Origin: Patescibacteria group bacterium | GTDB lineage: Bacteria > Patescibacteriota > Patescibacteriia > Patescibacteriales > UBA12465 | Reading direction: 5' to 3' | NCBI GenBank assembly: GCA_050949525.1 | Contig: JBMNFW010000001.1 | Span: 335,890 to 399,889, forward strand | DNA length: 64,000 nt | Shown here: positions 5,843 to 57,238 of the stretch, one piece after another | Layout: each line of letters starts with the position of its first letter | Position numbering within the stretch: position 1 is the first letter of the stretch | Translations under genes and position numbers: made by a program | The notes under the pieces: model-generated | The model's input: the letters and a program-made list of their open reading frames with translations, nothing else | Databases searched by the model: none | Told to the model about the DNA's origin: nothing

Positions 5843-5856
5843 TTTTAAAAGAACTA
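5843..5856 (-). promoter_or_regulatory. Conserved leader box TAGTTCTTTTAAAA
   Basis: The minus strand reads TAGTTCTTTTAAAA, then ttacagct (8 nt), then ATG of the 5834 gene. A TGACA-17-TAGTCT promoter-like pair lies just upstream. Confidence 0.6.
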
Positions 5857-6002
5857 ATTACAGACTATCATTAATATTAATTTTTGTCAGTTTTATTTGA
5901 TGACTAAAAAATGATTTTTTAGAATTTTTAATTATTATAATAAAGGGGTTGATTCTATGGAATAAATGTTGTATGATTTATAGGTAATTTTAATGAAAAA
6001 CA

Positions 6003-7649
6003 ATGGGAAATAGAAAAATATTCATTGGAGCTGCTTGGCCTTATGCCAATGGCTCCTTACATTTAGGTCATGCGGCAGCTTTATTAGGTTCAGATGTTTT
6101 AGCTCGCTATTTTCGTCTTAATGGTGATTCAGTTTTATTTGTTTCGGGAAGTGATTGTCATGGAACACCGATTGCCTTACAAGCAGAAAAATTAGGAATA
6201 AAGCCTGAAGAAATAGCTAATAAATATCATCAAGAATTTTCTAAGACCTTAATTCAGGGTTTAAATTTTTCTTTTGATTATTACAGTGAAACCACTAAGG
6301 AAAGCCATCAAAAATTAGTTCAAGATATTTTTTTAGATTTATGGAAAAAGAAACTAATTTATACCAAGACTGAAGAGTTAGCTTATTGTGACACTTGTCA
6401 ACGATTTTTACCAGATAGATATATTGAGGGAGAATGTCCTCATTGTCATTTTGGTTCGGCTCGAGGTGATCAATGTGATAATTGTGGTAACTTAATTGAT
6501 CCTAAAACTTTAATTAAACCACAGTGTCAGATTTGTCATCAAGCCCCAGTGTGGAAAGAGTCCGAGCATTTCTTTTTAAAAATTTCGGCTTTTAATGATG
6601 ACCTAAAGCAATGGGTAGAAAATAGTCAGGGTTGGCGTTTAAATGCTAAGAGTTTTAGTTTAGAGCTTTTAAAGCAGGGATTTAGAGATCGGGCCATTAG
6701 TCGAGATACTGATTGGGGAATACCAATTCCTTTACCCGGCTATGAATCTAAGAGAATTTATGTTTGGTTTGAGGCTGTTTGTGGTTATTTATCAGCTAGC
6801 CAAGATTGGAATTCAGAAACTTGGAAAGATTTTTGGCAAAATGATTCCGCTTGTCATTATTATGTTCATGGTAAAGATAATATTCCTTTTCATACTATCA
6901 TTTGGCCGAGTATTTTATTAGGTTTAGGGGATCTTAATTTACCCAATAGAATCATATCTTCTGAGTATATGACTTTAGAAAAGAAACAGTTTTCTACGAG
7001 TCGTAATTGGATGGTCTCTTTACCAGATTTTTTAAGTGAATTTGAAGCTGATCTGTTACGTTATTATTTAATTGTTAATGGTCCTGAAACTTCTGATGCT
7101 GATTTTTCTTGGTCTGAGTTTGCTCTTCGGATTAACAAAGAATTGGTAGGAACTTTCGGTAATTTTGTGTTTCGGGTTCTATCTTTTATTTCTAAAAATT
7201 TTAACAATAATTTAGATTTTCCTGAGGATTTGAAAGAGGATGAAGTAGAAATTCTAAAATTAGCTTCTGAAACATTTTCTAAAGTTGGACAATCTTTAGA
7301 GGCCGGACGTTTTCGTCAGGCTTTAAGAGATGTTTTCTTTCTAGCTGAAGAGGGAAATCGTTATTTGAATAATAAAGCTCCTTGGAAAGTAATAAAAGAG
7401 GATAGGGAGCAGGCTCAAAGAGACTTAACTTTAATGGCCTATATTATCAAATGTTTAGCTGTATTAATTAATCCTTTTTTACCACAAAGTTCGGAACCTT
7501 TAGCCGATCAAGTTGGTTTAGATTTTAATCAATTTAAGTGGGGTGCACCTTTGGATAAAGGTCTAGAATTAGGGATAATTAGGCCCTTATTTAAAACCAT
7601 TAGCGAGGAAGAGATCAAAGTTCAAGAAAAAAAACTAAACAGGTGTTGA
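6003..7649 (+). CDS. metG: Methionine--tRNA ligase (short form without the C-terminal tRNA-binding domain)
   Basis: HIGH motif (HLGHAA), zinc knuckles CPHC...CDNC and a KMSKS-like KFSTSR. Confidence 0.9.
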   Translation: MGNRKIFIGAAWPYANGSLHLGHAAALLGSDVLARYFRLNGDSVLFVSGSDCHGTPIALQAEKLGIKPEEIANKYHQEFSKTLIQGLNFSFDYYSETTKESHQKLVQDIFLDLWKKKLIYTKTEELAYCDTCQRFLPDRYIEGECPHCHFGSARGDQCDNCGNLIDPKTLIKPQCQICHQAPVWKESEHFFLKISAFNDDLKQWVENSQGWRLNAKSFSLELLKQGFRDRAISRDTDWGIPIPLPGYESKRIYVWFEAVCGYLSASQDWNSETWKDFWQNDSACHYYVHGKDNIPFHTIIWPSILLGLGDLNLPNRIISSEYMTLEKKQFSTSRNWMVSLPDFLSEFEADLLRYYLIVNGPETSDADFSWSEFALRINKELVGTFGNFVFRVLSFISKNFNNNLDFPEDLKEDEVEILKLASETFSKVGQSLEAGRFRQALRDVFFLAEEGNRYLNNKAPWKVIKEDREQAQRDLTLMAYIIKCLAVLINPFLPQSSEPLADQVGLDFNQFKWGAPLDKGLELGIIRPLFKTISEEEIKVQEKKLNRC

Positions 7650-7675
7650 CATAATCTTTCTTATGTGATACTCTG
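7646..7675 (+). promoter_or_regulatory. Sigma70-like promoter (TTGACA plus TGtGATACT)
   Basis: AGGTGTTGACA overlaps the metG stop codon. An extended -10-like TGTGATACT lies downstream. The same AGGTGTTGACA string recurs at 56354-56364. Confidence 0.5.
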
Positions 7676-7678
7676 CTT

Positions 7679-7691
7679 TAGTTCTTTAAAA
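7679..7691 (+). promoter_or_regulatory. Conserved leader box TAGTTCTTTAAAA
   Basis: TAGTTCTTTAAAA, then aatatcgt (8 nt), then ATG at 7700. Confidence 0.6.
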
Positions 7692-7699
7692 AATATCGT

Positions 7700-8146
7700 A
7701 TGAATTGGATAGAAGTTGGGGTAATGATTTTGGTGATTTTAATCATTATCATAGTTGAAAAAATAAATCACCGAGATGAAGAGAAAAAAGGGGATGAAAT
7801 TGAGGATCGATTTTTAAGTATTGAGAAGAAAATTACATTTTTATTCTTAGCTTTAATCGGTTTTACTTTCCTAGCTGGTATGATATTATTAGCTGTTTTA
7901 GCTGATATATTTCTACTTCTGGGAATTACTATCTCACCTTTTATTTTTATTGTTTACAGCTTAGTAAAGCTAGCTGAATTCAATAAAAGGTTTTCTTTTT
8001 TCTTAAATTTAGGATTTATATTATCAATTATTATATTAATAATTGATAAAAATCCTTATTACATTCACTCATTATTTATATTATTCACCATATTTATGGT
8101 GATATCTTTATTTAGAATAATGAGAAAAAATAGAAGTCAAAAATAG
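7700..8146 (+). CDS. Hypothetical multi-pass membrane protein
   Basis: Four or five hydrophobic helices and no recognisable family. It has a leader box and a terminator. Confidence 0.6.
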   Translation: MNWIEVGVMILVILIIIIVEKINHRDEEKKGDEIEDRFLSIEKKITFLFLALIGFTFLAGMILLAVLADIFLLLGITISPFIFIVYSLVKLAEFNKRFSFFLNLGFILSIIILIIDKNPYYIHSLFILFTIFMVISLFRIMRKNRSQK

Positions 8147-8158
8147 ACTTCTTTTTTA
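8132..8158 (+). terminator. Rho-independent terminator
   Basis: Stem AGAAGTC / GACTTCT spans the stop codon and is followed by TTTTTTA. Confidence 0.65.
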
Positions 8159-8203
8159 TTTTTTAGAAAAATGCTATAATCAGGTAGAATAAAAAATGAA
8201 ATT

Positions 8204-9718
8204 ATGAAAACTAAAAATCCAGTAATATTAATTATTCGTGATGGTTGGGGATATAATCCGAAGCGAGAGTTTAATTATATTAAACAAGCTAAAACGCCTA
8301 ATGAAGATAGGTATTTAAAGACATATTCTCACACTCTTTTAAAAGCCAGTGGGGAAGCGGTAGGTTTAGAGAAAGGGTATCAGGGTAATTCTGAAGTTGG
8401 TCATTTAACCTTGGGTTCAGGTCGGATAATCTTTCAATCTTTACCTCGAATTAATCAGAGTATAAAGAGTGGGGAATTCTTTAAGAAAAAAGAATTTTTG
8501 GATTTAATTAAACATTGTCGAGAAAAAAAGAGTAAATTACATTTAATGGGCTTACTTCAGGTGGAAGGGGTTCACTCGCATTTAGATCATCTATTAGCTC
8601 TCTTAGATTTATGTGCTCAGAATAAGTTTAAGGATGTATTAATACATCTCATTACTGATGGACGTGATGCTCCAGTAAATGATAGTTTGAAGCATTTAAA
8701 TAGGCTACAGAGAAAGATAAAAGAGCTGAATTTAGGGGAGATAGTTAGCGTTAGTGGTCGTTATTATGCGATGGATCGGGATAATCGTTGGAGTCGAACC
8801 AAGACAGCGTATAAAATTATTGTACAGGGGGAAGGCCCTAGTTTTAAAGATATTAAAACTGAAATAAAAGCCTGTCATTTAGCAGGTCAAAGTGATGAAT
8901 TTATTATCCCAAAAAAACTAGAATCATATCAGGGTGCTCAAAGTCAGGATGCTTTCATTTTCTTTAATTTTAGGACTGATAGGACTAGACAGTTAAGTCA
9001 AGCTATAGTGGAAAAGAATTTTAAGGGCTTTTCTCGTCCTAAAAAAACCTTTAAAATGACAGCTATGACGCAGTATTATGATAATATGTCAGCTCAAGTT
9101 GCTTTTCCTAGTATTGATATCAATAATACTTTAAGTGATATTTTAGCTCAAGCTAATTATCGTCAATTAAGAATTAGCGAGACTGAAAAATATGCTCATG
9201 TTACTTTTTTCTTTAATGGTCAAAAAGAAAAAGCTAATAGAGGAGAAGATAGAATTTTAATCCCATCTCCTAAGGTGGCTACCTATGATCTTCAACCTGA
9301 AATGAGTGTTTTTAAAATTTCAGATCGTTTGACGAAGGAGATAAAAAAAAGATATTATGATTTCATAGTTGTTAATTTAGTTAATGGAGATATGGTGGGA
9401 CATACTGCTCAAGTTGAAGCTATTAAAAAAGCTATTAGCGCTGTTGATAAAGCTCAGGGAGATATTGTTAAAAGTGCTTTAGAGAATGGTTATACCACTT
9501 TACTTTTAGCTGATCATGGCAATGCTGAGGATAAGCGACCCGCTACTATTACTAGCCATACTACTAATCCAGTTCCCGCTATTTTAATTTTTCCGAATAA
9601 AAGTTTAAAATTGCGAAAAGGTGGGGGATTATCAGATGTGGCACCGACGATTTTGGAACTTTTAGGATTAGAGCCTTCAGTTGAGATGACTGGTCAATCA
9701 TTATTATTTAATTATTAA
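8204..9718 (+). CDS. gpmI: 2,3-bisphosphoglycerate-independent phosphoglycerate mutase
   Basis: RDGWG, GNSEVGHLTLGSGRI and the C-terminal metal-site motifs NGDMVGHT and ADHGNAE. An extended -10 TGCTATAAT lies at 8172-8180. Confidence 0.9.
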   Translation: MKTKNPVILIIRDGWGYNPKREFNYIKQAKTPNEDRYLKTYSHTLLKASGEAVGLEKGYQGNSEVGHLTLGSGRIIFQSLPRINQSIKSGEFFKKKEFLDLIKHCREKKSKLHLMGLLQVEGVHSHLDHLLALLDLCAQNKFKDVLIHLITDGRDAPVNDSLKHLNRLQRKIKELNLGEIVSVSGRYYAMDRDNRWSRTKTAYKIIVQGEGPSFKDIKTEIKACHLAGQSDEFIIPKKLESYQGAQSQDAFIFFNFRTDRTRQLSQAIVEKNFKGFSRPKKTFKMTAMTQYYDNMSAQVAFPSIDINNTLSDILAQANYRQLRISETEKYAHVTFFFNGQKEKANRGEDRILIPSPKVATYDLQPEMSVFKISDRLTKEIKKRYYDFIVVNLVNGDMVGHTAQVEAIKKAISAVDKAQGDIVKSALENGYTTLLLADHGNAEDKRPATITSHTTNPVPAILIFPNKSLKLRKGGGLSDVAPTILELLGLEPSVEMTGQSLLFNY

Positions 9719-9729
9719 TATATAATTCT

Positions 9730-10464
9730 ATGCGTTTAGCAGGAAAAGTGGCTATTGTTACCGGGGCTTCTTCTGGCTTAGGGGAAGCAATAGCTAAAAT
9801 GTATTTAGCTCAAGGAGCTAAAGTTGTTTTATCTGATCTAAATCATTATGAAAAGATAGATGATTTAGGTCCAGATGCTTTATTCTTTTCAGCCAATGTA
9901 ACTAAGGAAGAGGAAGTAAAAAAACTTCTTGATTTTACCTTAGAAAATTTTGGTCGACTTGATATTATAGTTAACAATGCCGGGGTTGGTGATACCACTC
10001 CTTTAATTGAAATGAGTTCTGAGACTTGGTCTAAAGTTTTAGCGGTAAATTTAAATGGAGTTTTTTATGGAACTAAAATTGCGGCTAAGTATATGAAGGA
10101 GAATAATATTAAAGGTTCTATTATTAATACCGCTTCTATTTTAGGGTCAGTTGGTTTTCAGGGAGCTTCAGCTTATTGTACTTCTAAAGGTGGAGTTAAT
10201 CAATTAACTAGAACAGCGGCTTTAGAGCTAGCTTCAGCTGGAATTAGAGTTAACTCTATTGCTCCGGGGTTTATAAAAACCAAGATGACTCAAGGAGTTG
10301 AAGAAGATAAAGCTTCTAATGATTTTATAAATTCTATGACTCCTTTAGGTTATATGGGAGAGCCTAATGATATTGCTTATGCCGCTGTTTATTTAGCTTC
10401 TGATGAATCTAAATATGTTACCGGATCAGTACTTTATGTTGATGGTGGCTGGACTGCTCATTAG
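9730..10464 (+). CDS. Short-chain dehydrogenase/reductase (FabG or glucose-1-dehydrogenase-like)
   Basis: TGASSGLG cofactor motif, NNAG, and the catalytic S...YxxxK (YCTSK). Confidence 0.85.
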   Translation: MRLAGKVAIVTGASSGLGEAIAKMYLAQGAKVVLSDLNHYEKIDDLGPDALFFSANVTKEEEVKKLLDFTLENFGRLDIIVNNAGVGDTTPLIEMSSETWSKVLAVNLNGVFYGTKIAAKYMKENNIKGSIINTASILGSVGFQGASAYCTSKGGVNQLTRTAALELASAGIRVNSIAPGFIKTKMTQGVEEDKASNDFINSMTPLGYMGEPNDIAYAAVYLASDESKYVTGSVLYVDGGWTAH

Positions 10465-10557
10465 AAAAAAAGAAAAAAGAAAAAAAATGATAAATAAAAA
10501 AGCTGGAGATTATTCTCTTGCTTTTTTTTAATATATTTTATATGATGAATATCGTTA

Positions 10558-10647: not shown

Positions 10648-10648
10648 A

Positions 10649-10792: not shown

Positions 10793-10793
10793 T

Positions 10794-11774: not shown

Positions 11775-11776
11775 AT

Positions 11777-13610: not shown

Positions 13611-14686
13611 TGTATGCAGATAAAGTTTAAGTACTATAATTGTCCCGGATTTGGTACATTATATAATGATGCAATTAAGCAAAAATATATGATTACCAAA
13701 GAAGCTAGACAAAGACTCAAAATATTAGAATTTTGGAAGCAATATGGCCTTCAAGCCACTACTGATGCCTTTGGGGTTAAAAAATCTACCCTATACAATT
13801 GGCAAAAAATATTTAGAGAAGGGGGTGGCAAGATAGAAGCTCTCAATCCTAAATCCCAAGCTAGGATTAACAAGAATAAAAGAGAAATACATCCTCTGAT
13901 ATTAAAAGAGATTAGACGTTTAAGACTAGAGATTTGTCCTAATATGGATAAAACTAAAGTTAAAAAATTTTTAGATAAATTTTGTGAAATTAATAATTTA
14001 CCAATATACTCAGAATCAAAGATAGGTAGAATTATTAAAGATAAAGATATATATCATCATAGACAGAAAATATCTCATTTTGGTAAGATTAAAAAAATTA
14101 AAAAAACTAAAAAGAAAAGAAAACCTAAGGAATTACAAGTAAATAATCCTGGGGATTTAATAGAGATAGATACTGTTGTTAGATTTCACAATGGATTAAA
14201 GAGATATATTATTACCGCTGTTGATACTTTTAGCCGAACAGCTTTCGCTTATGCCTATAACAGAATTAGTAGCTCTAATGCTAAAGATTTTTTTAAAAAA
14301 TTAGAAGAAGTCATGCCCTTTAATATTAAGGCTGTTCAGACTGATAATGGTTTAGAATTCCATCTCTATTTTAAAAAATACTTAGAAGAGAGAAAAATTG
14401 AGCATTATTTCAATTATCCAGGTAGACCATACAAACAGGGTCATATTGAGAAGTTTAATAGGACTATTCAAGAAGAATTCATTGATTGGAGTGGTGAAAA
14501 ATACTTTGATAATTTAGATGATTTTAATAATTTGTTAATTGATTGGCTTCTTTGGTATAATACCGATAGACCACATTGGAGCCTTGAATTAGTATCTCCG
14601 ATGAATTATTTGGTTAATAATAATTTTTTTTCCAAAATGACGTGGACTAATACAGCTTCTTGACTATAATTTATCAATAATATACA
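13611..14686 (+). mobile_element. IS481-like insertion sequence (boundaries tentative)
   Basis: A single DDE/rve transposase ORF. Candidate imperfect terminal inverted repeats are TGTAT-n3-GATAAA (left) and TTTATC-n6-ATACA (right). I found no target-site duplication. Confidence 0.5.
13689..14663 (+). CDS. DDE (rve) transposase/integrase, IS481/IS3-superfamily-like
   Basis: N-terminal HTH (KKSTLYNWQK) and a DDE triad context: LIEIDTV, VQTDNGLEF and GHIEKFNRT. The probable start is ATG 13689; the track ORF starts at 13614. Confidence 0.8.
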   Translation: MITKEARQRLKILEFWKQYGLQATTDAFGVKKSTLYNWQKIFREGGGKIEALNPKSQARINKNKREIHPLILKEIRRLRLEICPNMDKTKVKKFLDKFCEINNLPIYSESKIGRIIKDKDIYHHRQKISHFGKIKKIKKTKKKRKPKELQVNNPGDLIEIDTVVRFHNGLKRYIITAVDTFSRTAFAYAYNRISSSNAKDFFKKLEEVMPFNIKAVQTDNGLEFHLYFKKYLEERKIEHYFNYPGRPYKQGHIEKFNRTIQEEFIDWSGEKYFDNLDDFNNLLIDWLLWYNTDRPHWSLELVSPMNYLVNNNFFSKMTWTNTAS

Positions 14687-27809: not shown

Positions 27810-27810
27810 A

Positions 27811-36316: not shown

Positions 36317-36398
36317 CGTTATCAAAATCTTGTTATTATAATTATTAAATTTTAAACTTATTGACATAATAAGTATTTTTTATTATCCTTCTTTGTTG

Positions 36399-36410
36399 TA
36401 GTTCTTTAAT
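36399..36410 (+). promoter_or_regulatory. Leader box variant TAGTTCTTTAAT
   Basis: It is preceded by TTGACATAAT at 36361. The spacing to ATG 36433 is longer (AGTTC to ATG is 33 nt). Confidence 0.4.
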
Positions 36411-36432
36411 ATATTAATAAAAAAATAAAAAA

Positions 36433-37407
36433 ATGGAAGAAAAAAAGATTTTTAAAAGCTTTTTACTCAGCTTAGTGGCTGAGGAAAAAGATTTAAATTC
36501 ACTTAATTTTGAGGAATTAAGTGAAATTTTGAAAAAGACCTCTCCTGGCTCTGATTACAGGAAAAGGGTGGACAAAAAACTTTTTCCAATTATTTCTAAA
36601 ATATTGGAAAAGGATTTTTATTGTATAGAGGAATTTTTTATAGAACTAGTAATAGTGCTAGATTCTATAAGTCCAGATTCTAAAAATGAGTTTTTGGTTT
36701 TAAGAAGATTGAGAGAAGTTTTGAAAGATGTGGAAGAGGAGGGTGTTTTAATAAAATACTATTCTAATCTTTTAAATTTTCCAAAAGGAGCCAGAATACT
36801 TTTACTTAAGATTAGGGATATATGGTCTAAGAAAGATCCTTACGATCTTATTGAAATAAAATCTGGAATTAGGGAGAGAACCTTAAATAAGCTTTTAGAA
36901 GAGCTTATTTTAGAAAAGCTTCCAAGTCGACTTAAAATGGAAAGCTCTTCTAATGAGCTTTTAAGGATATTATCCTTATTACCATTTAGCTCCAGAATTA
37001 AGAGCATGGTGGAAGAAAGGTTAGAATTTATTTTCGAAAATAAAGAAAATAGATTCTTTTTTTCCATATTTTCCTTTGATCAACTATATCTCTATTGGAA
37101 AAACTTTTCTAATAGAAGTAAAGGAAGAAGCATTCTCCTACAGGCCATTAAGGAGAATATTTATAATGATAATCTGGAAAAATTATATAAAAAATTGATC
37201 CAGGTTGAGATTTATGACAGTGATGTCAGAAATCTCATTTTAAATAAACTAATGGTAAAAATACGTCATATGACTTTTGAGGATAAAAATGATTACAAAT
37301 TTTTTGTAAATATCGTATATAACGATATTACAGAAAAAGACATTCCTCAAGATCTTCTACCAATCGTGATCGAAAAGGTAAAAACAATATTAAAAGAAGG
37401 AGCTTAG
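36433..37407 (+). CDS. Hypothetical helical protein
   Basis: A long ORF with promoter, leader box and terminator (37397-37418). I recognise no family. Confidence 0.55.
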   Translation: MEEKKIFKSFLLSLVAEEKDLNSLNFEELSEILKKTSPGSDYRKRVDKKLFPIISKILEKDFYCIEEFFIELVIVLDSISPDSKNEFLVLRRLREVLKDVEEEGVLIKYYSNLLNFPKGARILLLKIRDIWSKKDPYDLIEIKSGIRERTLNKLLEELILEKLPSRLKMESSSNELLRILSLLPFSSRIKSMVEERLEFIFENKENRFFFSIFSFDQLYLYWKNFSNRSKGRSILLQAIKENIYNDNLEKLYKKLIQVEIYDSDVRNLILNKLMVKIRHMTFEDKNDYKFFVNIVYNDITEKDIPQDLLPIVIEKVKTILKEGA

Positions 37408-37471
37408 GCTCCTTTTTCTATTTGCTCAAAATAAAAAAATTAGTTATAATCAAGATATTAAATTAATATTT

Positions 37472-39164: not shown

Positions 39165-39200
39165 ATTGACAAAGATTTTAGTTTTTGTTAAAAAGGTTGG

Positions 39201-39213
39201 AGTTCTTTTAAAA
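39201..39213 (+). promoter_or_regulatory. Conserved leader box AGTTCTTTTAAAA
   Basis: TTGACA (39166), 17 nt, TAAAAA, then gAGTTCTTTTAAAA, then ttatagct (8 nt), then ATG 39222. Confidence 0.6.
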
Positions 39214-39221: not shown

Positions 39222-39860
39222 ATGAAGAAAATAATCGATCGAAAAATTTTAATCTCTTGGGGAATAATTTCTCTAATTTGGGTCATTTTTAGATTAGTAA
39301 TAATCTATGTTTTGGGCCCGGAAGAGATTTCTCTAGTATCCCAAGATTATTTATCTTGGGTAGGATTACCAAATAAGGTAATCTTGCCAGGATGTTTTAT
39401 CATCCTGGACATACCATCCTTATTACTCCTAATGATTATTTTTAAAATATTCATTGGAGCTGCTAATAATGACTTTGTCAATATTAGCAGAAAAAAGAGA
39501 ATAATAGCTCTAGGTTCAGTAATGATTATTCCGTCTATAGTCGGAATAATTTTATACCTTTTTTTTGGTATTACAATGGCTATTATTATAGCTACAGGAC
39601 TAGCTGCTATAGCTGGCCTGATAATATCAATGAAAAAAAATGGAGGAATAAGATCCCTAGATTCTTATTTTCTCGCTATTGAACCTTGGACTATATTTAT
39701 GATATTCTTATTATTCGGTATAGGAATATCCGGAGGACTAAATATAAGTGCCCTATTAATAATCCTATTATTTATAGGATTAGGGATGCTATTTATTGCC
39801 TTTATGGCAATAATGGTAATAGTGTATATTGTAAAAAAAGTAATATTTTTTTTATTTTAA
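39222..39860 (+). CDS. Hypothetical multi-pass membrane protein
   Basis: Five or six hydrophobic helices, with a leader box upstream. Confidence 0.6.
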   Translation: MKKIIDRKILISWGIISLIWVIFRLVIIYVLGPEEISLVSQDYLSWVGLPNKVILPGCFIILDIPSLLLLMIIFKIFIGAANNDFVNISRKKRIIALGSVMIIPSIVGIILYLFFGITMAIIIATGLAAIAGLIISMKKNGGIRSLDSYFLAIEPWTIFMIFLLFGIGISGGLNISALLIILLFIGLGMLFIAFMAIMVIVYIVKKVIFFLF

Positions 39861-43443: not shown

Positions 43444-43899
43444 TTAAATCATATTTTCTTCAATTTTTGTTTCTCTAACTTCTCGGTATTTTAATTTTGC
43501 CGAAATAAAAAGAACAAAGATTCCAGAATAAATTAAAGGTAGTAATAGGATTTCGGAATTACCCGTTCCTATTACTCCGTTTTTAATGTATCCTGTTTGA
43601 TAGCCTATCATAGCGGCTATAAAGCAAAATACCGGAATAAATCTCATGAAGCCCACTTTTATTAAAAGTGATGCTCCATAAAAAAATATAAAAATGGCTG
43701 ATATATCAACATGGGAGTCTATCCCAGTGTTAATATTAGCAACTTTAGGACCTAGTGTGATCATAAGTCCTAATAGGATTAAAAATATTCCTTTTTGAAT
43801 TCTGATGGTTTTTTCATCAGAATTCAAATAAAAAAGAATAAAATCAAATACCACCACTATGGCGGTAGTTGATAAGATTGTAATGATTAAATTTGTCAT
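43444..43899 (-). CDS. Hypothetical multi-pass membrane protein
   Basis: Four or five hydrophobic helices, with a leader box upstream. Confidence 0.6.
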   Translation of the reverse strand: MTNLIITILSTTAIVVVFDFILFYLNSDEKTIRIQKGIFLILLGLMITLGPKVANINTGIDSHVDISAIFIFFYGASLLIKVGFMRFIPVFCFIAAMIGYQTGYIKNGVIGTGNSEILLLPLIYSGIFVLFISAKLKYREVRETKIEENMI

Positions 43900-43907
43900 A
43901 ATACAAT

Positions 43908-43920
43908 TTTTAAAGAACTA
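43908..43920 (-). promoter_or_regulatory. Conserved leader box TAGTTCTTTAAAA
   Basis: The minus strand reads TTAGTTCTTTAAAAATTGTATT then ATG. AGTTC to ATG is 20 nt. Confidence 0.6.
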
Positions 43921-43966
43921 AAGATGTTCAAAAGTCAATAGTTGAAGGTAATAATTGTAAAAATAC

Positions 43967-44034: not shown

Positions 44035-44808
44035 ATGTCTACATTTTTAAAAAAGCTTCGTCATAAGCAAAAAATTAGTCAAGAATTTTTAGCTAAAAAA
44101 ATAGGTGTTTCTCGTCCCACTTATTCACAAATTGAAAATGGCGAGCGAAAGATGCTTGTAGAAGAGGCTCAGAAATTAGCACGATTTTTTGGTTTATCTT
44201 TGGAGGACTTTCTTTCTGGTAAGGATATGCCAGTATTAAAGGTGGAATTGGAAAAATCAAAAAAGAAGAAACAAAAAAAGCAAGAAGTGCGTGTTTCTGT
44301 ACCTCAGGAAAAAGTAGAAAAGTTTAAAGAGGTATTTTTATATATTTTAGAAAGAATTGGCGCTCGGCCTAATATCGGTGAAGCGGTTATCTGTAAAATA
44401 ATGTATTTTATTGATTTTGATTTTTATGAAAAATTTGAAGAACAATTAGTTGGTGCTAAATATATCAAAAATCATTTTGGACCAACTCCTGTTGCTTTTC
44501 CTAAAATTGTCGCTCAAATGGAAAAAGATGGTGACTTAGTTCGGATTACTAAAAAATATTTTCAACATGAGCAGAAAAAATATTTACCACTGAGATCAGC
44601 TGATTTGTCTAATTTTTCAGCTCGAGAGAAGGATCTTATTGATTGGGAGATTGAGCGGTTTAAGGATTTTAATGCTAGTAAAATACGAGATTATTCCCAT
44701 AAAGATGTTCCTTGGATTGGGGCTGATAATTTACAGGAAATTGATTATGAAGCGGTTTTTTCTCGCACTGATGAATTTTCTGTAAGGCAATATGATGATA
44801 AAATATGA
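44035..44808 (+). CDS. XRE-HTH plus Panacea (DUF4065/SocA-like) domain antitoxin
   Basis: N-terminal HTH_XRE (ISQEFLAKKIGVSRPTYSQIENGER) and a Lys-rich linker. The C-terminal KIMYFIDFDFY...HFGPTPVAF is DUF4065-like. Confidence 0.7.
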   Translation: MSTFLKKLRHKQKISQEFLAKKIGVSRPTYSQIENGERKMLVEEAQKLARFFGLSLEDFLSGKDMPVLKVELEKSKKKKQKKQEVRVSVPQEKVEKFKEVFLYILERIGARPNIGEAVICKIMYFIDFDFYEKFEEQLVGAKYIKNHFGPTPVAFPKIVAQMEKDGDLVRITKKYFQHEQKKYLPLRSADLSNFSAREKDLIDWEIERFKDFNASKIRDYSHKDVPWIGADNLQEIDYEAVFSRTDEFSVRQYDDKI

Positions 44809-45163
44809 CGAAACAGAAGAATTTAAGCGTGATTTTAAGAAACTGCTAAAAAGATTTCCAACTTTAGTAGATGATTTTAATATAAATAAAAAATATAGAA
44901 TTAATCTTTTTCATTGTAAAAAGATTGACAGTAAAAGTATTTTTGAAATTCAGGGAGCTGGCAATACGGATGAATTAAGGTTTTTTAAAGTTAAAAAATT
45001 TCAATGTAAAAGTTTAAAGGGGCGCGGAGCAAAAAGCGGTATTCGTGTCATTTATGCTTATTTACCAATGATCCATAAAATTATATTTTTAGAAATTTAT
45101 TTTAAATCAGATCAGGAAAATGAGACAAAAAAGAGGATAATTGATTTTATGAGAGATAGGTAA
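44795..45163 (+). CDS. RelE/ParE-superfamily-like toxin
   Basis: Small basic protein overlapping the antitoxin 3' end. It has FKRDFKKL and GIRVIYAY...IIFLEIYFKSDQEN, typical of the RelE-like fold. Confidence 0.55.
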   Translation: MIKYDETEEFKRDFKKLLKRFPTLVDDFNINKKYRINLFHCKKIDSKSIFEIQGAGNTDELRFFKVKKFQCKSLKGRGAKSGIRVIYAYLPMIHKIIFLEIYFKSDQENETKKRIIDFMRDR

Positions 45164-45194
45164 TATTAAATAGAGTGATAAGGATAAACGATAG

Positions 45195-45218
45195 AACTGG
45201 CTTAAAACCAGTTTTTTA
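45195..45218 (+). terminator. Rho-independent terminator after the TA pair
   Basis: Stem AACTGG / CCAGTT with a 7-nt loop, followed by TTTTTAT. Confidence 0.6.
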
Positions 45219-45279
45219 TTTGGAGTTTATACAAATTTGTGATAAATTAAATATGAAGAATTTATAAATAAATTTGTGT

Positions 45280-46275
45280 ATGACAAGATCACAAAATACA
45301 AATTTACACAGAGCTAGAGATAGAAAGAATGATGAGTTTTATACTCAGCTTTCAGACATTGAAAAAGAATTAAAGTATTATAAAGATCATTTTAGGGGGA
45401 AAATTATTTATTGTAATGCCGATGATCCTTTTGAGAGTAATTTTTTTAAATATTTTGCCTCTAACTTTAATAATCTCGGTTTAAAAAAACTTATTACCAC
45501 AAGTTATGCTGGCTCCCCAGTTGTTGGTGAGCAATTACCTTTATTTGAGGTGGCAGGCCTTAAAAAAGCTAAAATTAAGGAGCCGATGAAGATTGAAATT
45601 AACGAAGTTAAGGATCTTAATAAAGATGGAGCTACAAGTATTATTGATGTTGAGTTACTTTTAAGAAATAATAAAAATATAACCACTCCTCTTAAGGGTG
45701 ATGGAGATTTTCGTAGTGAGGAATGTATAAAATTATTAAAAGAGGCTGACATTATTGTTACTAATCCACCTTTTAGTTTGTTTAGGGAATATGTTGCACA
45801 GTTAATGGAATATAAGAAAAAATTTTTAATAATAGGAAATAAAAATGCTATAACTTATAAAGAGTTTTTTCCATTACTAAAAGATAATAAGGTTTGGATA
45901 GGTTATAATAATGTAAAAGAATTTAAACAACCTAATGGAGTATTAAAAAAATTTGGAAATGTTGGGTGGTATACCAATCTTGATATTAAAAAACGACACG
46001 AGGAATTGATACTTTATAAAAAATATAATTCAAAAGAGTATCCAAAATATGATAATTATGATGCAATTAATGTTGATAAGGTGAATAATATACCTTCGGA
46101 TTATGATGGAGTTATGGGTGTTCCTATAACATTTATGGATAAATATAATCCCAATCAATTTGAGATAGTGTCGTTTAGAAAGGGTAGTGATGGAAAAGAT
46201 TTGGTATTTACGAGAGAGAGAGAGAGAGTTCAACCATACTTTCGTATCCTTGTACGACGGCAATTCCGGGATTAA
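45280..46275 (+). CDS. N6-adenine DNA methyltransferase, M.EcoRI family
   Basis: NDEFYTQ near the N-terminus, catalytic motif IVTNPPFSLFREY, YDGVMGVPITFMDKYNP, and C-terminal FRKGSDGKDL...PYFRILVRR. The start is taken at ATG 45280. Confidence 0.85.
   Translation: MTRSQNTNLHRARDRKNDEFYTQLSDIEKELKYYKDHFRGKIIYCNADDPFESNFFKYFASNFNNLGLKKLITTSYAGSPVVGEQLPLFEVAGLKKAKIKEPMKIEINEVKDLNKDGATSIIDVELLLRNNKNITTPLKGDGDFRSEECIKLLKEADIIVTNPPFSLFREYVAQLMEYKKKFLIIGNKNAITYKEFFPLLKDNKVWIGYNNVKEFKQPNGVLKKFGNVGWYTNLDIKKRHEELILYKKYNSKEYPKYDNYDAINVDKVNNIPSDYDGVMGVPITFMDKYNPNQFEIVSFRKGSDGKDLVFTRERERVQPYFRILVRRQFRD
46212..46228 (+). repeat. (GA)8 dinucleotide tract inside the methyltransferase CDS
   Basis: GAGAGAGAGAGAGAGAG encodes RERER, 16 codons before the stop. 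Confidence 0.95.
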
Positions 46276-46492
46276 TAAAAAACGCAGAAGGAAAAGTGAA
46301 TGGCAGAATTACTTATGCTCGAATAACTATAAGAAACAAAAAATTAAGGAACCAATAGATTATTTTTTCCCAAATGTTACTAATTTAGCCAACACTTTAG
46401 TGAATGATTGTACTATTAATGGTAAAAAAACTTATGTAAGGGTGTTGATAAGAAAAAAAGACAAAAAACATGTTAACTTTATTTTTAAATAA
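46229..46492 (+). other. Two alternative out-of-frame C-terminal extensions of the methyltransferase
   Basis: Frame 3 (read after loss of 2 nt, one GA unit, from the tract) is open to 46358 and ends ...GKVNGRITYARITIRNKKLRNQ*. Frame 2 (read after gain of 2 nt, one GA unit; track ORF 46187-46492) ends ...INGKKTYVRVLIRKKDKKHVNFIFK*. Confidence 0.6.
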
Positions 46493-46500
46493 AAAATCAT

Positions 46501-47586
46501 ATGAAAATTGAATTAAAAGAAATTATGATTCGTGAATTAGCTGACGGATTTCAAGATAATGCCGAAGATGGTGTTATTGGCTATGGTGGCAGACTTGATA
46601 TTCGTCCGCCATATCAAAGAGAGTTTATTTATAAAGATAAACAAAGGGATGCTGTTATTGATACTATCACTAAAAAATTTCCACTTAATGTAATGTATTG
46701 GGCGGTGCGAGAAGATGGAAATTTTGAGATTATTGATGGACAACAACGCACAATTTCAATTTGTCAGTATGTCAAAGGTGATTTTTCAATTAATGGCTTA
46801 GCTTTTCATAATTTAACAAATGATAAACAAGAGCAAATTTTAAATTATAAACTTACCGTTTATCAATGTAGTGGAACAGACAGCGAAAAATTAGATTGGT
46901 TTAGAACTATAAATATTGCTGGTGAAAAGTTAACTGATCAAGAATTACGCAATGCTGTTTATTCTGGTTCTTGGGTAACTGATGCAAAGCGATATTTTAG
47001 TAAAACTGGGTGCGTTGCTTATCAAATAGGGAGTGACTATTTAAGTGGTACACCAATTCGTCAAGATTATTTAGAGACAGCTATTAAGTGGATTTCTGAT
47101 AATAAAATAGAAGACTATATGTCCGATCATCAACATGATCAAAATGCTGCTGCCTTGTGGCGATATTTTCAAGATGTAATAACTTGGATAGAAACTACTT
47201 TTGTCAAGAAAAGGACAAAATTTATGCGTAGCGTTGACTGGGGTGCTCTCTATAATGTTTATAAAGATGAAAAATATGATACAAAGAAAATTGAGGAGGA
47301 AACGGTTAAATTAATACTTGATGATGATGTCACAAAAAAGAGCGGTATTTATCCATATATCTTAACTCGTGATGAAAAATATCTTTCTATTCGCTCCTTT
47401 TCTGATGCTACGAAACAAGAAGTTTATGAGGAGCAAAAAGGTATTTGTGTAAAATGTAAGAAGAAATTTGAGCTAGAAGAAATGGAGGCTGATCATATAA
47501 CTCCTTGGCATGAAGGAGGGAAGACAATAAAGGAAAATTGTCAGTTATTATGTAAAAATTGTAATAGACGAAAGTCTGGTAAATAA
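46501..47586 (+). CDS. DUF262 (ParB/GmrSD-N-like) plus HNH endonuclease
   Basis: DUF262 motifs RPPYQREFIY and IIDGQQRT. The C-terminal HNH is ADHITPWHEGGKTIKENCQLLCKNCNRRKS. Confidence 0.8.
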   Translation: MKIELKEIMIRELADGFQDNAEDGVIGYGGRLDIRPPYQREFIYKDKQRDAVIDTITKKFPLNVMYWAVREDGNFEIIDGQQRTISICQYVKGDFSINGLAFHNLTNDKQEQILNYKLTVYQCSGTDSEKLDWFRTINIAGEKLTDQELRNAVYSGSWVTDAKRYFSKTGCVAYQIGSDYLSGTPIRQDYLETAIKWISDNKIEDYMSDHQHDQNAAALWRYFQDVITWIETTFVKKRTKFMRSVDWGALYNVYKDEKYDTKKIEEETVKLILDDDVTKKSGIYPYILTRDEKYLSIRSFSDATKQEVYEEQKGICVKCKKKFELEEMEADHITPWHEGGKTIKENCQLLCKNCNRRKSGK

Positions 47587-51025: not shown

Positions 51026-51038
51026 TTAAAATAAAATT

Positions 51039-53435: not shown

Positions 53436-53893
53436 GAAAAATAAGTATTATAAGTTTAACGTCTTCTAAAAAAGATGCTTATCAAGATTTAGTTAAGGAA
53501 TATCAAAAAAGATTAAAACCTCACCTTGATTTAGAGTTAATTGAAATTCCGGCTTTAAGTTTTTCTTCAACTAATATTTCTGAAATTAAACGAAAAGAAA
53601 CTTTGAAAGTTTTAAAATTATTAGAGAAGAGAAGTGAGGCTGATATTTTTATTCTTTCTGAAGAGGGGGTTGAGTTAGATTCGGTTTCTTTTTCTCGTCA
53701 GATATTTAGCGATACTAAGCCCTTAGTTTTTATTATTGCTGGATCTTTAGGTTTTGATTTTTCACTTCTTAAGGCTTATCCTCGTTTATCATTATCTAAA
53801 ATGACATTTTTACACGACATGGCTCGATTAATACTTATAGAGCAGATTTATCGTGCTTGGGCTATAGAACGAGGAAAAACTTATCATTATTAA
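53432..53893 (+). CDS. rlmH: 23S rRNA (pseudouridine1915-N3)-methyltransferase RlmH
   Basis: SPOUT C-terminus: IIAGSLGF...LSLSKMTFLHDMARLILIEQIYRA...YHY. Confidence 0.85.
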   Translation: MRKISIISLTSSKKDAYQDLVKEYQKRLKPHLDLELIEIPALSFSSTNISEIKRKETLKVLKLLEKRSEADIFILSEEGVELDSVSFSRQIFSDTKPLVFIIAGSLGFDFSLLKAYPRLSLSKMTFLHDMARLILIEQIYRAWAIERGKTYHY

Positions 53894-54999
53894 ATTAGGG
53901 CTCGGATTAAATAGAAGGATCCTAGAAAAAGGAAAATTAGAGAAGCAATTAGGGTGAAGAGATTAATAAATTTAGGTGAAACTATTTTTATTCTCATAGT
54001 AAAGAAAGCAATTAAAAAGATAATAATTTCATCAAGAAGATAAAAGAAGATAAAAATAGATAAATATAGAATGGTAAGTGGAAAGGAAATATTAGCTTCA
54101 ACTAAAATTCCAGCAAAAAGAACTGGTAAGAGAGCTGAACAGGGAAATTCTACAATAGTAATAATAATGGCAAATAGTATTACTACGGTTGATAATATTA
54201 AAATATTTTTCTTTTTAGAGAATATTTTTTCAACTTTCGGTGATAATTTAGAAATAATACCATTAGAACTACAAGTAGCTCCTTGCTTTCTAGATTTAAA
54301 ATATTCTCGAGCTAAATATATTCCACCAATTATAGATAGTACGCCAATAAATATTTCCATGCTTTTAATATAGGGAGAAAGAATTAAAAAAAGCTGTTGC
54401 CACATGAAAATAAGAAGACCGTAAATTAATCCGGTAATTAGAATAAATAATCCTCCTAAGACTAATATTTTCTTTCTTGATTTTAAAACCATTACCAAGC
54501 CTAGAATAATAACCAAGGCTCCTAAGGAGCAAACATTAAAACCATCTACTACACCTAGAATTACTGCTAATACTGGTAAAGAAAATTGACTGATATCTTG
54601 TTCGCCCCACAAAGGAATTTTAATGGTTTTAGTGTTTAAATCTAGTTCTTGGTTTTTTATTTTATTTAATATTTCTTTTTTAGTATTATTGTCAAAGCCA
54701 ATAAAAAATTGATCTTCAATAAAAGTGGCCGGAATTAATCCTTGCTTGTTTTGCGGAACATTATATTTTGAATAATAATCACTGATTAACTCAATATTTT
54801 GAGAAAAATTATATTCTTTAACTTCTATTTGTGAATAATCTTTTTTTAAATTTTCTAAATATTGCTTTTCAGCTAAACAATGGGGACAGCTAGGACTAGT
54901 AAAAAGCTCTATATATAATTTTTCTTGAGCTTTTAGGGAGGATAAAGGAAAGAGTAGTAAAAGACTTAAAAAAAATAAAAAAGAAAATCTTGTTTTCAT
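53890..54999 (-). CDS. Secreted thioredoxin-like (CPHC) domain fused to a DsbD/CcdA-like membrane domain
   Basis: The start is taken at MKTRFSFLFF..., a classical signal peptide; the track ORF extends to 55023. It has the active site SCPHC and then about six TM helices. Confidence 0.6.
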   Translation of the reverse strand: MKTRFSFLFFLSLLLLFPLSSLKAQEKLYIELFTSPSCPHCLAEKQYLENLKKDYSQIEVKEYNFSQNIELISDYYSKYNVPQNKQGLIPATFIEDQFFIGFDNNTKKEILNKIKNQELDLNTKTIKIPLWGEQDISQFSLPVLAVILGVVDGFNVCSLGALVIILGLVMVLKSRKKILVLGGLFILITGLIYGLLIFMWQQLFLILSPYIKSMEIFIGVLSIIGGIYLAREYFKSRKQGATCSSNGIISKLSPKVEKIFSKKKNILILSTVVILFAIIITIVEFPCSALLPVLFAGILVEANISFPLTILYLSIFIFFYLLDEIIIFLIAFFTMRIKIVSPKFINLFTLIASLIFLFLGSFYLIRALI

Positions 55000-55057
55000 A
55001 TAAATAAAGTTTAGTTTTATCATCCTGATTATACTCTGTTAATAGTTTAAATTCAAC

Positions 55058-55366
55058 TTGACTTTTAAGAGTTATATGGTTTTCTATTTAGCCGTAGTGA
55101 ATTTTATTTTAATTAATATTTTTACATTCTTAAATGTCGGTGATCTAGCATATTCGCTAGCGGCCTCCATTTCCTTTTTATTTTTTTATAGCTTAGCTAT
55201 ATTAACTGAAAGGAAAGGAATAAAAGCTCTATTATTAATAACTTTTATTGCTACATTGTTTATTCTTGATCATCATCTTACAAGTATTGGAGTAATGGGT
55301 GCAATCACGATGATTGTTTACTCTGCCTTTTTCTTCTTTACTTGTAGTGAATTTGAGAAACTTTAA
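55058..55366 (+). CDS. Small multi-pass membrane protein, paralog of the 57247 gene
   Basis: The start is TTG 55058 or ATG 55076. The segment RKGIKALLLITFIATLFIL resembles PKGIIKALMLGIFIFLMFV in the 57247 product. Confidence 0.5.
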   Translation: MTFKSYMVFYLAVVNFILINIFTFLNVGDLAYSLAASISFLFFYSLAILTERKGIKALLLITFIATLFILDHHLTSIGVMGAITMIVYSAFFFFTCSEFEKL

Positions 55367-55368
55367 TT

Positions 55369-55398
55369 AAAGCTCTAGATAATTATAGAGCTTTTTTT
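55369..55398. terminator. Bidirectional terminator
   Basis: Stem AAAGCTCTA / TAGAGCTTT followed by a T-run, between convergent genes. Confidence 0.65.
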
Positions 55399-55413
55399 AT
55401 TTTAAATTTTTAA

Positions 55414-56286
55414 TTATTTTTTTAATTTTCCATATACTCCAAAGAGTAGATCTAAATCTTTTTCTGAGTCTAATAATAATTTATTATTAAAACTAACTAT
55501 TGATTCTAAAAAATTTAATGCTAGTTTATTTTGTTTATCTCTAAACTTACAATCTTTATACATTTCTACTAAAGCAGCCATGTCTTTAATAAAGCAATGT
55601 CCACCCGCTCCTCGACCTACTTTACCCACTAAACCTCCTTGATGCTTTATTTTTAAATGACTATGACCAATACGGGAATCATAACTCACCATTTCAGCTA
55701 CTTTATCATAATTAATACCATTTTCTTTGGCTAAATTAAAAATTGTGTTAGCAAATACAACTTTTATCATTAAAAAAGCATTACCCATATATTTCGCTAA
55801 CTCCGCTTCTTTACTAGGTATAATAAAATTGTGATCTGCTGGTGGTAGAATATCTAAAACTGACTTAGCCAGTTTTTGAGATTTTTTAGTATAGCCAACA
55901 ATATTTCTTTCTGGAAATTTGGTATCATTCTTAGCGTTTTTTTCAGTTAAAAATTCAGGAGAGTGTATTATGAATTTTTTAGGATATAATTTTTGAATTT
56001 TTTCTGTTGTACCAATTTTAATAGTTGATTTGATAATAGCGGTTTTTCCATCACCAACTAATTTTATAACATCTAATAAAATACTATCATCAAAACCTTT
56101 AGGAGTAGTTGGAGTGGGAACAGCGACAAAAACGAAATCACATTCAGCAATTTTTTCTTTATTATGAGCAAATTTATTTTTACTATAACGAACTATATTA
56201 TAACCACGTTCAGCAAAATCATCAGCCATATTTTTACCAATAAAACCTTGTCCAATAAAGCCAATTAATAATTTTTCTTTTTTCAT
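55414..56286 (-). CDS. Nucleotide-sugar (UDP-glucose/GDP-mannose) dehydrogenase family protein, short form
   Basis: N-terminal Rossmann motif IGFIGQGFIG, VPTPT, and the catalytic Cys context GGHCFIKD. Confidence 0.7.
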   Translation of the reverse strand: MKKEKLLIGFIGQGFIGKNMADDFAERGYNIVRYSKNKFAHNKEKIAECDFVFVAVPTPTTPKGFDDSILLDVIKLVGDGKTAIIKSTIKIGTTEKIQKLYPKKFIIHSPEFLTEKNAKNDTKFPERNIVGYTKKSQKLAKSVLDILPPADHNFIIPSKEAELAKYMGNAFLMIKVVFANTIFNLAKENGINYDKVAEMVSYDSRIGHSHLKIKHQGGLVGKVGRGAGGHCFIKDMAALVEMYKDCKFRDKQNKLALNFLESIVSFNNKLLLDSEKDLDLLFGVYGKLKK

Positions 56287-56358
56287 ATAATTTGTAATTA
56301 ATTTTTAATTTATGCTCCAATTTTAAATTAAAAAATTATAAGTGTCAAAAATGAGGTG

Positions 56359-56387
56359 TTGACAATTGCCTTTAAATATGTTATAAG
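56359..56387 (+). promoter_or_regulatory. Consensus sigma70-like promoter
   Basis: TTGACA, 17 nt, then TATAAG. It is preceded by the same AGGTG as the 7646 promoter. Confidence 0.6.
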
Positions 56388-56394
56388 TTTAAAT

Positions 56395-56613
56395 TAGTTC
56401 TTTTAAAAGTTTTTGGGTAGGAGCGTTTTTGATATAAAAATTTGTATAAAAAACGCTCTTACTCAGGAAAATGTAAAACATCAGCACTCTCCTAATTACA
56501 ACACCCAATATAGACTTAGTCGGTCAGGAGATGGGATGAGTAAAACGCTATTGCTGATAGAAATCAGAAAAAACTAGGTTTTGATTTAAATCCCGGGCCT
56601 AGCGGGTAATACA
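56395..56613 (+). ncRNA. Candidate structured 5' leader or small RNA, starting with the leader box
   Basis: It starts with TAGTTCTTTTAAAA and has a 16-bp hairpin (GGGTAGGAGCGTTTTT / AAAAACGCTCTTACTC). Nested helices are ATCAGCA/TGCTGAT and TCTCCT/AGGAGA. G+C is locally raised, and its 5' and 3' ends are complementary. Confidence 0.4.
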
Positions 56614-57138
56614 ATGAGAATATCAAAAAAAATTGACTATCACAATCATCGAGAAATCAATACTCCAGGGGGAGTTTTTTTCTCTTTTATTCCTCATCTT
56701 TTTAAAGGTGATAGAGGAAGTCTGGTTATGATTGAGAAAAAATTAGTCAAAAAAATTTACGAGGAAGAAAAAACCCTCGTAACGGTTAGAGAGAAAACCG
56801 GTAAGGATGATCGAAAATATTTCGTCATCCGTAGCCCCAAAAACAAGGAGGACAAATATAGATTATTTGTTATCTCCTGTGGTGGGAATCAAGACCGCCG
56901 AGAGGATTATGGTCACTTCAGAATTAGGAATATCAAAGATGGGATAATAATTTATGATATCTCATCTTGGTGGGGGGAGAACCATCAAGTGTTAGTAGCA
57001 CTAAAAAAAGATGGTTATATAGAGATCGAAGGAAACCATGGTGCTGGTTTCAAGGGGCGCCATCCTCAACCAGATTTTTTAATAAAATTAAGCAGTGATG
57101 GCTCAGAAGAGCATATCACTGATCTCGATATTGATTAA
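56614..57138 (+). CDS. Hypothetical soluble protein (ORFan)
   Basis: A 174-aa ORF followed by a strong terminator (57145-57175). I recognise no family. Confidence 0.55.
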   Translation: MRISKKIDYHNHREINTPGGVFFSFIPHLFKGDRGSLVMIEKKLVKKIYEEEKTLVTVREKTGKDDRKYFVIRSPKNKEDKYRLFVISCGGNQDRREDYGHFRIRNIKDGIIIYDISSWWGENHQVLVALKKDGYIEIEGNHGAGFKGRHPQPDFLIKLSSDGSEEHITDLDID

Positions 57139-57144
57139 AAAATA

Positions 57145-57175
57145 AAACCTGTTTCAAATGAGACAGGTTTTTTTA
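57145..57175 (+). terminator. Rho-independent terminator
   Basis: Stem AAACCTGT / ACAGGTTT (extendable) followed by a T7 run. Confidence 0.7.
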
Positions 57176-57225
57176 AACTCCTTGCTTTTTTTATATCTTT
57201 ATGATAATGTTTCTTTGTTATTCAA

Positions 57226-57238
57226 TAGTTCTTTAAAA
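57226..57238 (+). promoter_or_regulatory. Conserved leader box TAGTTCTTTAAAA
   Basis: TAGTTCTTTAAAAAATATATT then ATG. It matches the 7679-7699 leader at 21 of 23 positions. Confidence 0.6.

Follow-up and report, generated by a model that had tools for sequence, protein, structure and literature searches.

A recurrent boxA-like element behind predicted promoters of short accessory genes in a Patescibacteria genome

The boxA element, of consensus GYTCTTTAANA, is the binding site of NusB/S10 (PMC5725501). It is a short single-stranded stretch of nascent ribosomal RNA through which the Nus-factor complex is loaded onto RNA polymerase. NusB-S10 assembled on boxA together with NusG, NusA and SuhB modifies RNA polymerase and blocks Rho termination in artificial reporters and in clustered regularly interspaced short palindromic repeat (CRISPR) arrays, upstream of which boxA occurs in several phyla (Stringer et al. 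2020, PMC7665894). Among protein genes, boxA is found within 50 nucleotides (nt) of the starts of suhB, rpsJ and a parE-like gene; beside the start codon of suhB its effect is repression of translation, which opens the way to Rho termination, and this effect persists when it is moved as far as 100 nt away from the ribosome-binding site (PMC5725501). Gammaproteobacterial genomes hold between 0 and 7 such sites, described as "only a few regulatory targets" per species (PMC5725501), and the documented cases of boxA-dependent Nus control of protein genes number very few per genome and come almost entirely from Proteobacteria. Here we describe a short repeated box, TAGTTCTTT(T)AAAA, in a 64 kb stretch of a Patescibacteria genome (contig JBMNFW010000001.1, positions 335,890 to 399,889; hereafter the window). 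With moderate confidence we favour the reading that it is a boxA-type element which places short monocistronic accessory genes without Shine-Dalgarno sequences, most of them encoding orphan membrane proteins, under Nus-factor control.

The window has a G+C content of about 30% and an intergenic share of 6.4%. Six exact occurrences of AGTTCTTTWAAA were counted in it, compared to 0.34 +/- 0.55 expected (maximum 2) from 100 dinucleotide-preserving shuffles; a seventh copy, at 36400, is one mismatch away. All seven copies are intergenic and oriented toward the downstream gene, an arrangement with a chance of about 4e-11 according to a rough estimate that assumes independence. The repeat reported in the preliminary description of this DNA is real, and each of its copies, at fixed spacing or elsewhere, was recovered where it had been placed. 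Before 55076 the weaker relative that had been reported, TAGTTTAAATT, has no CTTT core and was left out of the count for that reason. Alignment of the seven sites revealed that AGTTCTTT is invariant in all of them and that the A-rich tail varies, conservation being limited to TTGACA and AGTTCTTT.A.A. The box is asymmetric; it is not a palindrome and contains no direct repeat.

Measured from AGTTC to ATG, the distance within the window is 20-21 nt at five genes, as had been described. On the minus strand, TAGTTCTTTTAAAA (5843..5856, a form with four T) lies 21 nt from the ATG of the lipoprotein-like gene 5394-5834(-), and TAGTTCTTTAAAAA (43907..43920) lies 20 nt from g43899 (43444-43899(-)), encoding a multi-transmembrane protein of 151 amino acids (aa). 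On the plus strand, TAGTTCTTTAAAAA recurs at 7679..7692 and 57226..57239, each time 20 nt from a gene for a multi-transmembrane protein (7700-8146, 148 aa, and g57247, 57247-57783, 178 aa), and GAGTTCTTTTAAAA, also of the four-T form, occupies 39200..39213, 21 nt from g39222 (39222-39860, 212 aa, multi-transmembrane). Two further plus-strand copies precede genes for soluble proteins: TAGTTCTTTAATA (36399..36411) lies 33 nt from gene 36433-37407, whose 324-aa product has no Pfam match, and a four-T copy of TAGTTCTTTTAAAA (56395..56408) heads the 218-nt leader of gene 56614-57138 (174 aa).

The five proteins encoded at fixed spacing are small (146-212 aa) and carry N-terminal hydrophobic segments, and they are unrelated-looking, as first described; among all box-linked proteins one weak paralogue pair was found, g55076 and g57247 (E = 1e-5). 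Their genes are short monocistronic units of 450-640 nt, each with its own intrinsic terminator. The description of the genes as orphans holds for the two that were tested: g57247 has matches from the same species only, among 5.8 billion proteins, and for g39222 a single distant homologue turned up among 1.84 billion cluster representatives. The suggestion of an envelope or secretome regulon is weakened by the soluble products of two of the seven box-linked genes (36433 and 56614). The lipoprotein-like gene (5243-5834(-)) varies in length among strains, encoding 146 aa in the window, 196 aa in loci L081, L083 and L084 and 170 aa in L082; these strains (L081-L084) are 99.96% identical, and the differences look like frameshifts. 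Also, in locus L128 (positions 1-190), which holds the closest relative of the window DnaE (76%), a hydrophobic open reading frame (ORF) ends just before dnaE, its 5' region lying beyond the contig end; its C-terminus resembles that of P0125, the distant homologue of g39222, and this type of "orphan" may, judging from the likeness, be older than the species.

Exact TTGACA hexamers occur 28-33 nt upstream of four of the seven boxes (P of at least four so placed about 6e-10 under a simple base-composition model), so the variable distance of 14-40 nt between box and -35 that had been reported is wrong for most sites. Five box promoters of sigma-70 type are predicted, each with a 17-nt spacer followed by a hexamer that starts with TA: TTGACA-17-TACTCT at 7646..7674(+), TTGACA-17-TAAAAA at 39166..39194(+), TTGACA-17-TATCCT at 36361..36389(+), TTGACA-17-TATAAG at 56359..56387(+) and CTGACA-17-TAGTCT at 5862..5890(-), the -35 of the last reading TTGACA in strain L084. 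At these five of the seven sites the box starts 5-10 nt after the predicted -10 (5, 6, 10, 8 and 6 nt, respectively), and it would span approximately +1 to +13 of the predicted transcript, at or a few nt from its predicted start. The T-A at the edge of the box is consistent with a start having a pyrimidine at -1 and a purine at +1. At ordinary promoters of the window TATAAT is followed 21-30 nt later by the ATG, and is often preceded by a TG or by a TTGACA -35. Also, housekeeping promoters share (TGC)TATAATCA(G/A)G, a -10 plus a conserved CAGG discriminator, found at 4047-4056(-), 8175-8184(+) and 37445-37454(+), with the ATG 21-23 nt later, and at 55024-55033(-), with the ATG immediately after; this motif is a second promoter class, separate from the box promoters.

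In order to establish what anchors the box, the loci were compared among strains of the same species, which is found in many metagenomes at 98-99.96% nucleotide identity. Its records include JGI 3300062814 and 3300061563, GCA_040364275.1, GCA_046128275.1 and many SRA runs. The distance from box to ATG of g57247 is 20 nt in the window and 22 nt in L127 and L094, owing to a 2-nt insertion after the box. At g39222 it is 21 nt with a four-T box in the window, L134 being the same, and 23 nt with a three-T box and a rewritten spacer in L131 and L132. At g43899 it is 20 nt in the window and 16 nt in L131, where 22 additional nt upstream of the box bring in a TAATAT -10 located 17 nt from TTGACT. The box thus survives 2-nt, 4-nt and 22-nt flanking indels, with an ATG spacing of 16-23 nt. 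In another organism (L133) an orthologue of g39222 with 33% identity is preceded by TTGACA-17-TATACT-8 nt-AGTACTTTAAAAA, placed 38 nt before the aligned ATG.

These comparisons support the functional constraint that had been proposed for the box, which is retained through indels on both of its sides. They reverse the claim that it is tied to the start codon and not to the promoter: the distance to the ATG is 16, 22, 23 or 38 nt in other strains and in the orthologue although the box itself persists, whereas its distance past the predicted -10 stays within 5-12 nt. As far as these sequences tell, the fixed spacing observed in the window is not itself conserved and the box keeps its place behind the promoter, so that the element appears to be tied to the promoter and the 5' end of the mRNA. 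Seen from the other side, the window (43920-43945(-)) is without the 22 nt of L131 (14700-14740(-)) that hold the only good -10 (TAATAT), and gene 43444-43899 may be poorly transcribed in the window strain or be served by a -10 internal to the box.

The likeness to boxA came up through a metagenome scan with the pattern TTGACA-N26-33-box-N7-8-ATG, which returned 32 loci, none from the species of the window and mostly chance matches, several with a true -10 at 17 nt; none of the 32 adjoins ribosomal RNA (rRNA) genes. In some of the chance matches a strong promoter was followed by AGTTCTTTAAAAA and by no ORF, and this prompted the comparison with boxA. Three unrelated contigs from outside the species (L095 2228-2285(+), L115 3779-3837(-) and L116 1034-1093(-)) carry TTGACA, about 29 nt, AGTTCTTT(T)AAAA, 7-8 nt and ATG, a spacing set by the search pattern itself, so that only the type of ORF is informative; in all three a real ORF downstream starts with a hydrophobic or signal-like segment, and GroES is encoded further downstream in L095.

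The consensus GYTCTTTAANA, derived from E. coli and applied here to a member of Patescibacteria, is matched perfectly at 7681, 36401, 43918(-) and 57228, within the copies at 7679..7692, 36399..36411, 43907..43920 and 57226..57239; two other matches in the window start with GCTC and lie inside coding sequence. Positions C4 and T6 are invariant in all seven copies. In the suhB boxA of E. coli, C4T/T6C and C4A mutations destroy function (PMC5725501). The leaders of Bacillus rrn operons, taken from small "plasmid" records with rRNA genes and checked in L129, carry G(T/A)TCTTTGAAAACTAAACAAG (also given as G(T/A)TCTTTGAAAAC) about 90 nt before the 16S gene, and their motif GTTCTTTGAAAA is one base from the window box. 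All seven copies and the L133 orthologue present the box on the sense strand, facing the downstream gene. The AGUUCUUU core is predicted to be unpaired over its full length at three sites and over part of it at two; at 7700 and 36400 pairing is predicted. Among the roles first suggested, that of a target for an RNA-binding protein or a small RNA is the best favoured, and it is the RNA-binding-protein part that gains support, from the match to a NusB/S10 site.

On this basis the box would be a boxA-type RNA signal for the NusB-NusE (S10) heterodimer on the nascent transcript. It would make up approximately nt 1-13 of the RNA from at least seven promoter-proximal units, namely the five short monocistronic hydrophobic-protein genes and the two soluble-protein genes, one of them behind a long structured leader. 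NusB/S10 would bind the box, for example as RNA 5'-AGUUCUUUAAAA-3', and the complex would stay tethered to RNA polymerase. Nus-factor loading at the mRNA 5' end is favoured because the units are short and monocistronic, have their own terminators and carry leaders of 16-38 nt without a Shine-Dalgarno sequence. Given such leaders and the analogy with suhB and the ParE-like toxin gene, the only instances of boxA beside a start codon that have been dissected, our committed guess is that the bound complex gates the access of ribosomes, as at suhB, and so sets the frequency with which transcription is completed. Expression of the accessory genes would then be tied to the free pool of NusB/S10 and thus to the state of ribosome synthesis. 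An effect of opposite sign, in which Nus factors would shield poorly translated genes against premature termination, is nearly as likely; both the binding of NusB/S10 and the regulatory outcome are inferred from analogy.

Several observations weigh against Nus-factor control of these genes. No rRNA gene, before whose 16S or 23S part a AGTTCTTTAAAA-like sequence would be expected, was found in the window or in the 126 loci, the same-species loci L081-L094 included. Neither nusB nor rpsJ nor rho was found in about 75 kb of DNA for this species; one Nus-factor gene was seen, however, and counts in favour: nusG, about 4 kb ahead of the start of the window in the same species (L081). The copies at 5854(-), 39202 and 56397 carry one inserted T relative to the consensus, and the box of the L133 orthologue departs from it by T3 to A. 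Hexamer pairs that resemble promoters turn up in shuffled DNA just as often as in the real sequence, because of which the transcript starts are predictions resting mainly on the exact TTGACA, and the sites at 43899 and 57247 are without a convincing upstream promoter in the window strain. Also, a need for processive antitermination is not obvious in short genes with their own terminators, and a repressor operator would typically be placed at +1 to +13 as well. Finally, relatives with DnaE proteins of 71-76% identity (L087, L088 and L128) show no comparable density of boxes, because of which dense box use seems to be limited to the species group, the L133 orthologue excepted.

A few other results bear on the same question. 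At the g39222 locus the two forms of the box alternate, with four T in the window and L134 and three T in L131. The C/G ratio of the box genes, a proxy for Rho loading, is the same as that of other genes. No boxes were found in the nearest relative by MetRS among GTDB genomes (57% identical). The window DnaE is 63-76% identical to proteins labelled Candidatus Falkowbacteria or Patescibacteria, which marks the organism as an uncultured, Falkowbacteria-like member of Patescibacteria; L087, L088 and L128 retain the ParA-ParB-DnaE synteny. A candidate boxA before a nusB homologue in L118, obtained by tblastn, was rejected, being a box-like string inside the coding sequence of RsmB, which has a NusB-like domain, on an unrelated contig. 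Literature searches on NusB or Rho in Patescibacteria, also known as the Candidate Phyla Radiation (CPR), returned nothing usable.

Compared with the complex formed at rrn boxA (NusB, NusE/S10, NusA, NusG, SuhB and S4), the window boxes are alike in core sequence and in their sense-strand orientation after a predicted promoter with a strong -35, but they precede short protein genes at the predicted extreme 5' end, whereas rrn boxA precedes rRNA and lies tens of nt into the leader; no boxB or boxC partners are recognisable at the window boxes. With the suhB type they share a position within 50 nt of a protein-gene start and a tolerance for variable distance; the differences are the number of sites, 0-7 per genome there and seven in 64 kb here, and the targets, which are Nus and translation genes there (PMC5725501) and orphan membrane proteins with leaders devoid of Shine-Dalgarno sequences in Patescibacteria here. 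The boxA of CRISPR arrays is alike in being a case of recruitment outside rRNA, but it shields poorly translated or untranslated transcripts from Rho (PMC7665894), while the genes targeted in the window are translated, 450-640 nt long and equipped with terminators of their own. Occurrence of boxA before protein genes is known but rare, and seven copies per 64 kb would be unusual. RfaH, through the short leader signal ops, gives accessory and poorly translated genes a dedicated elongation-factor regime; the analogy is a functional one only, ops being read as non-template DNA in a paused complex and being unrelated in sequence. What would be new here, conditional on the comparison with rRNA leaders, is the density of the sites, their placement at the predicted transcript 5' end, the leaders without Shine-Dalgarno sequences, the orphan accessory genes and the occurrence in Patescibacteria.

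The copy at 56396 stands apart. Just 3' of it lies a very stable hairpin (56410..56468(+)), with a stem of about 20 bp, an internal hairpin and no U-tract behind; for the 85-nt segment 56396-56480 the folding energy is -32.1 kcal/mol (z = -7.7). A search of Rfam gave two tRNAs only in the window, and for this leader generic hairpin matches only. Taken together, the box, hairpin and 218-nt leader are less like a ribosome-binding site than like a nut or rrn leader. The nut site of phage lambda consists of boxA followed by a 15-nt boxB hairpin, which is bound by the N protein. Likeness to it is found at 56396 only, where a hairpin lies within about 14 nt of the box and heads a long leader; however, the stem is of about 20 bp as against a 15-nt boxB, no N-like protein is evident, and this is one copy out of seven. 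The 3' arm of the hairpin (56454-56461(+)) contains CGCTCTTA, a sequence identical to the core of the lambda nut boxA; it is probably sequestered in the predicted stem, and it may be a coincidence. In locus L094 (8209-9222), from a low-coverage, error-prone assembly of the same species, an insert of about 1 kb is found at window position 56469/56470, right after the hairpin. Its minus strand holds a gene of about 190-206 aa in which a RelA/SpoT-like motif can be read ("...HIAEIQINTPEM..."), and its plus strand an ORF of 62 aa; the insert may, from this motif, represent a toxic small alarmone synthetase module.

Placement of the box relative to the promoter would also suit a DNA operator, bound as a duplex by a transcription factor at +1 to +13 and repressing a regulon of accessory genes. 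This reading can account for a position conserved with respect to the promoter and not to the ATG, for the survival of the sequence through flanking indels, and for the combination of an exact -35 with weak -10 hexamers, which is common in regulated promoters. We nevertheless consider it unlikely: the box is without a palindrome or direct repeat, all seven copies and the orthologue have a single orientation relative to transcription, the boxes lack a consistently linked regulator gene, and the perfect fit to an 11-nt RNA consensus would be a coincidence.

A second alternative concerns translation. Shine-Dalgarno sequences are nearly absent from the genome, starts being preceded by A/T-rich sequence, and a well-placed AAGGAGG is found only at gene 2292-2816(-); the box itself is not a Shine-Dalgarno sequence, as had been noted, and has no GGAGG-like run. 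In such a genome an A/U-rich enhancer or standby site bound by S1 could load the 30S subunit on these leaders independently of Nus factors, and the box is predicted to be mostly unpaired. The boxA of E. coli rrnB itself served as an "A/U-rich enhancer" that strongly stimulated initiation (PMC2176067); the reference list of this paper includes Mogridge and Greenblatt 1998 on specific binding of S1 to boxA. The sequence class and the position upstream of the start codon are thus the same, but the E. coli enhancer acts in cooperation with a Shine-Dalgarno sequence, weak ones being stimulated least (PMC2176067), and this partner is absent from the window leaders. In addition, the invariant G and C of AGTTC exceed the needs of a generic A/U-rich site, and the 56396 copy is 218 nt from its ATG, behind a strong hairpin, which makes this explanation quite unlikely.

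The preliminary description had also considered that TAAAAW within the box is a -10 that launches leaderless mRNAs at the ATG. TAAAAW does end 7 nt before the ATG at all five fixed-spacing genes of the window, hexamer pairs scoring 8-9/12 can be drawn at three of these sites (for example TTGTTA-18-TAAAAT), and at 43899 the sole -35 (TTGACT) is positioned for a box-internal -10. However, a conserved distance from -10 to ATG is not what was found, the distance from box to ATG being 16, 20-23, 33, 38 or 218 nt: 16, 22, 23 and 38 nt belong to other strains and the orthologue, and 33 and 218 nt to two window copies. The invariant portion is AGTTCTTT and not the -10-like tail, and is left unexplained; the exact TTGACA is positioned for a start at the box and not at the ATG, and comparable hexamer pairs are equally common in shuffled sequence, so we regard a leaderless origin as very improbable. 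We give as little credence to a functionless remnant of a copied promoter-leader cassette or mobile element end: two four-T copies share 30 nt at 93% (box through ATGAARAAA) and two three-T copies share 48 nt at 75%, but similarity ends with the box and up to about 15-30 nt in these two pairs, there is no element structure, extended repeat, terminal inverted repeat or flank similarity past the box and TTGACA, and the box is kept while neighbouring bases undergo indels among strains.

Mobile and defence-related genes occur elsewhere in the window. The g43899 gene adjoins a defence island (44035-47586) with genes for an HTH_3-SocA/Panacea antitoxin-like protein, a 123-aa partner, an EcoRI-type adenine methylase and a GmrSD_N/HNH endonuclease; in L131 the methylase and the endonuclease are absent and a fragment of an insertion sequence (IS) integrase gene stands in their place. 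An IS element with an rve-family integrase is located at 13614-14663, and an identical protein occurs in a different context in another sample (L130), suggesting that the element is probably active. A walk to further parts of the genome via IS copies yielded 1.9 kb of new sequence with no intergenic box. Also, several contigs of the same species end at a transposase-like ORF about 5 kb beyond the window end (L089).

A bolder extension of Nus-factor control, which we hold improbable, is that boxA and NusB-S10 have been co-opted from rRNA synthesis as a general "expression cassette" at the 5' end, serving genes that are newly acquired or newly born; a boxA in the first nucleotides would tether an S10/NusG-modified polymerase and replace the Shine-Dalgarno sequence in coupling the first ribosome, in the manner of RfaH. 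If this were true and the window typical, the cassette would serve dozens of orphan genes genome-wide. If Nus-factor control of the box genes itself is true, a CPR bacterium uses an rRNA antitermination signal as a common leader of accessory genes, at about a hundredfold the gammaproteobacterial density. This would provide a simple sequence rule by which metagenome-assembled genomes could be searched for such a regulon, and a first handle on gene regulation and transcription-translation coupling in Patescibacteria, a group that largely does without Shine-Dalgarno sequences and is genetically intractable.

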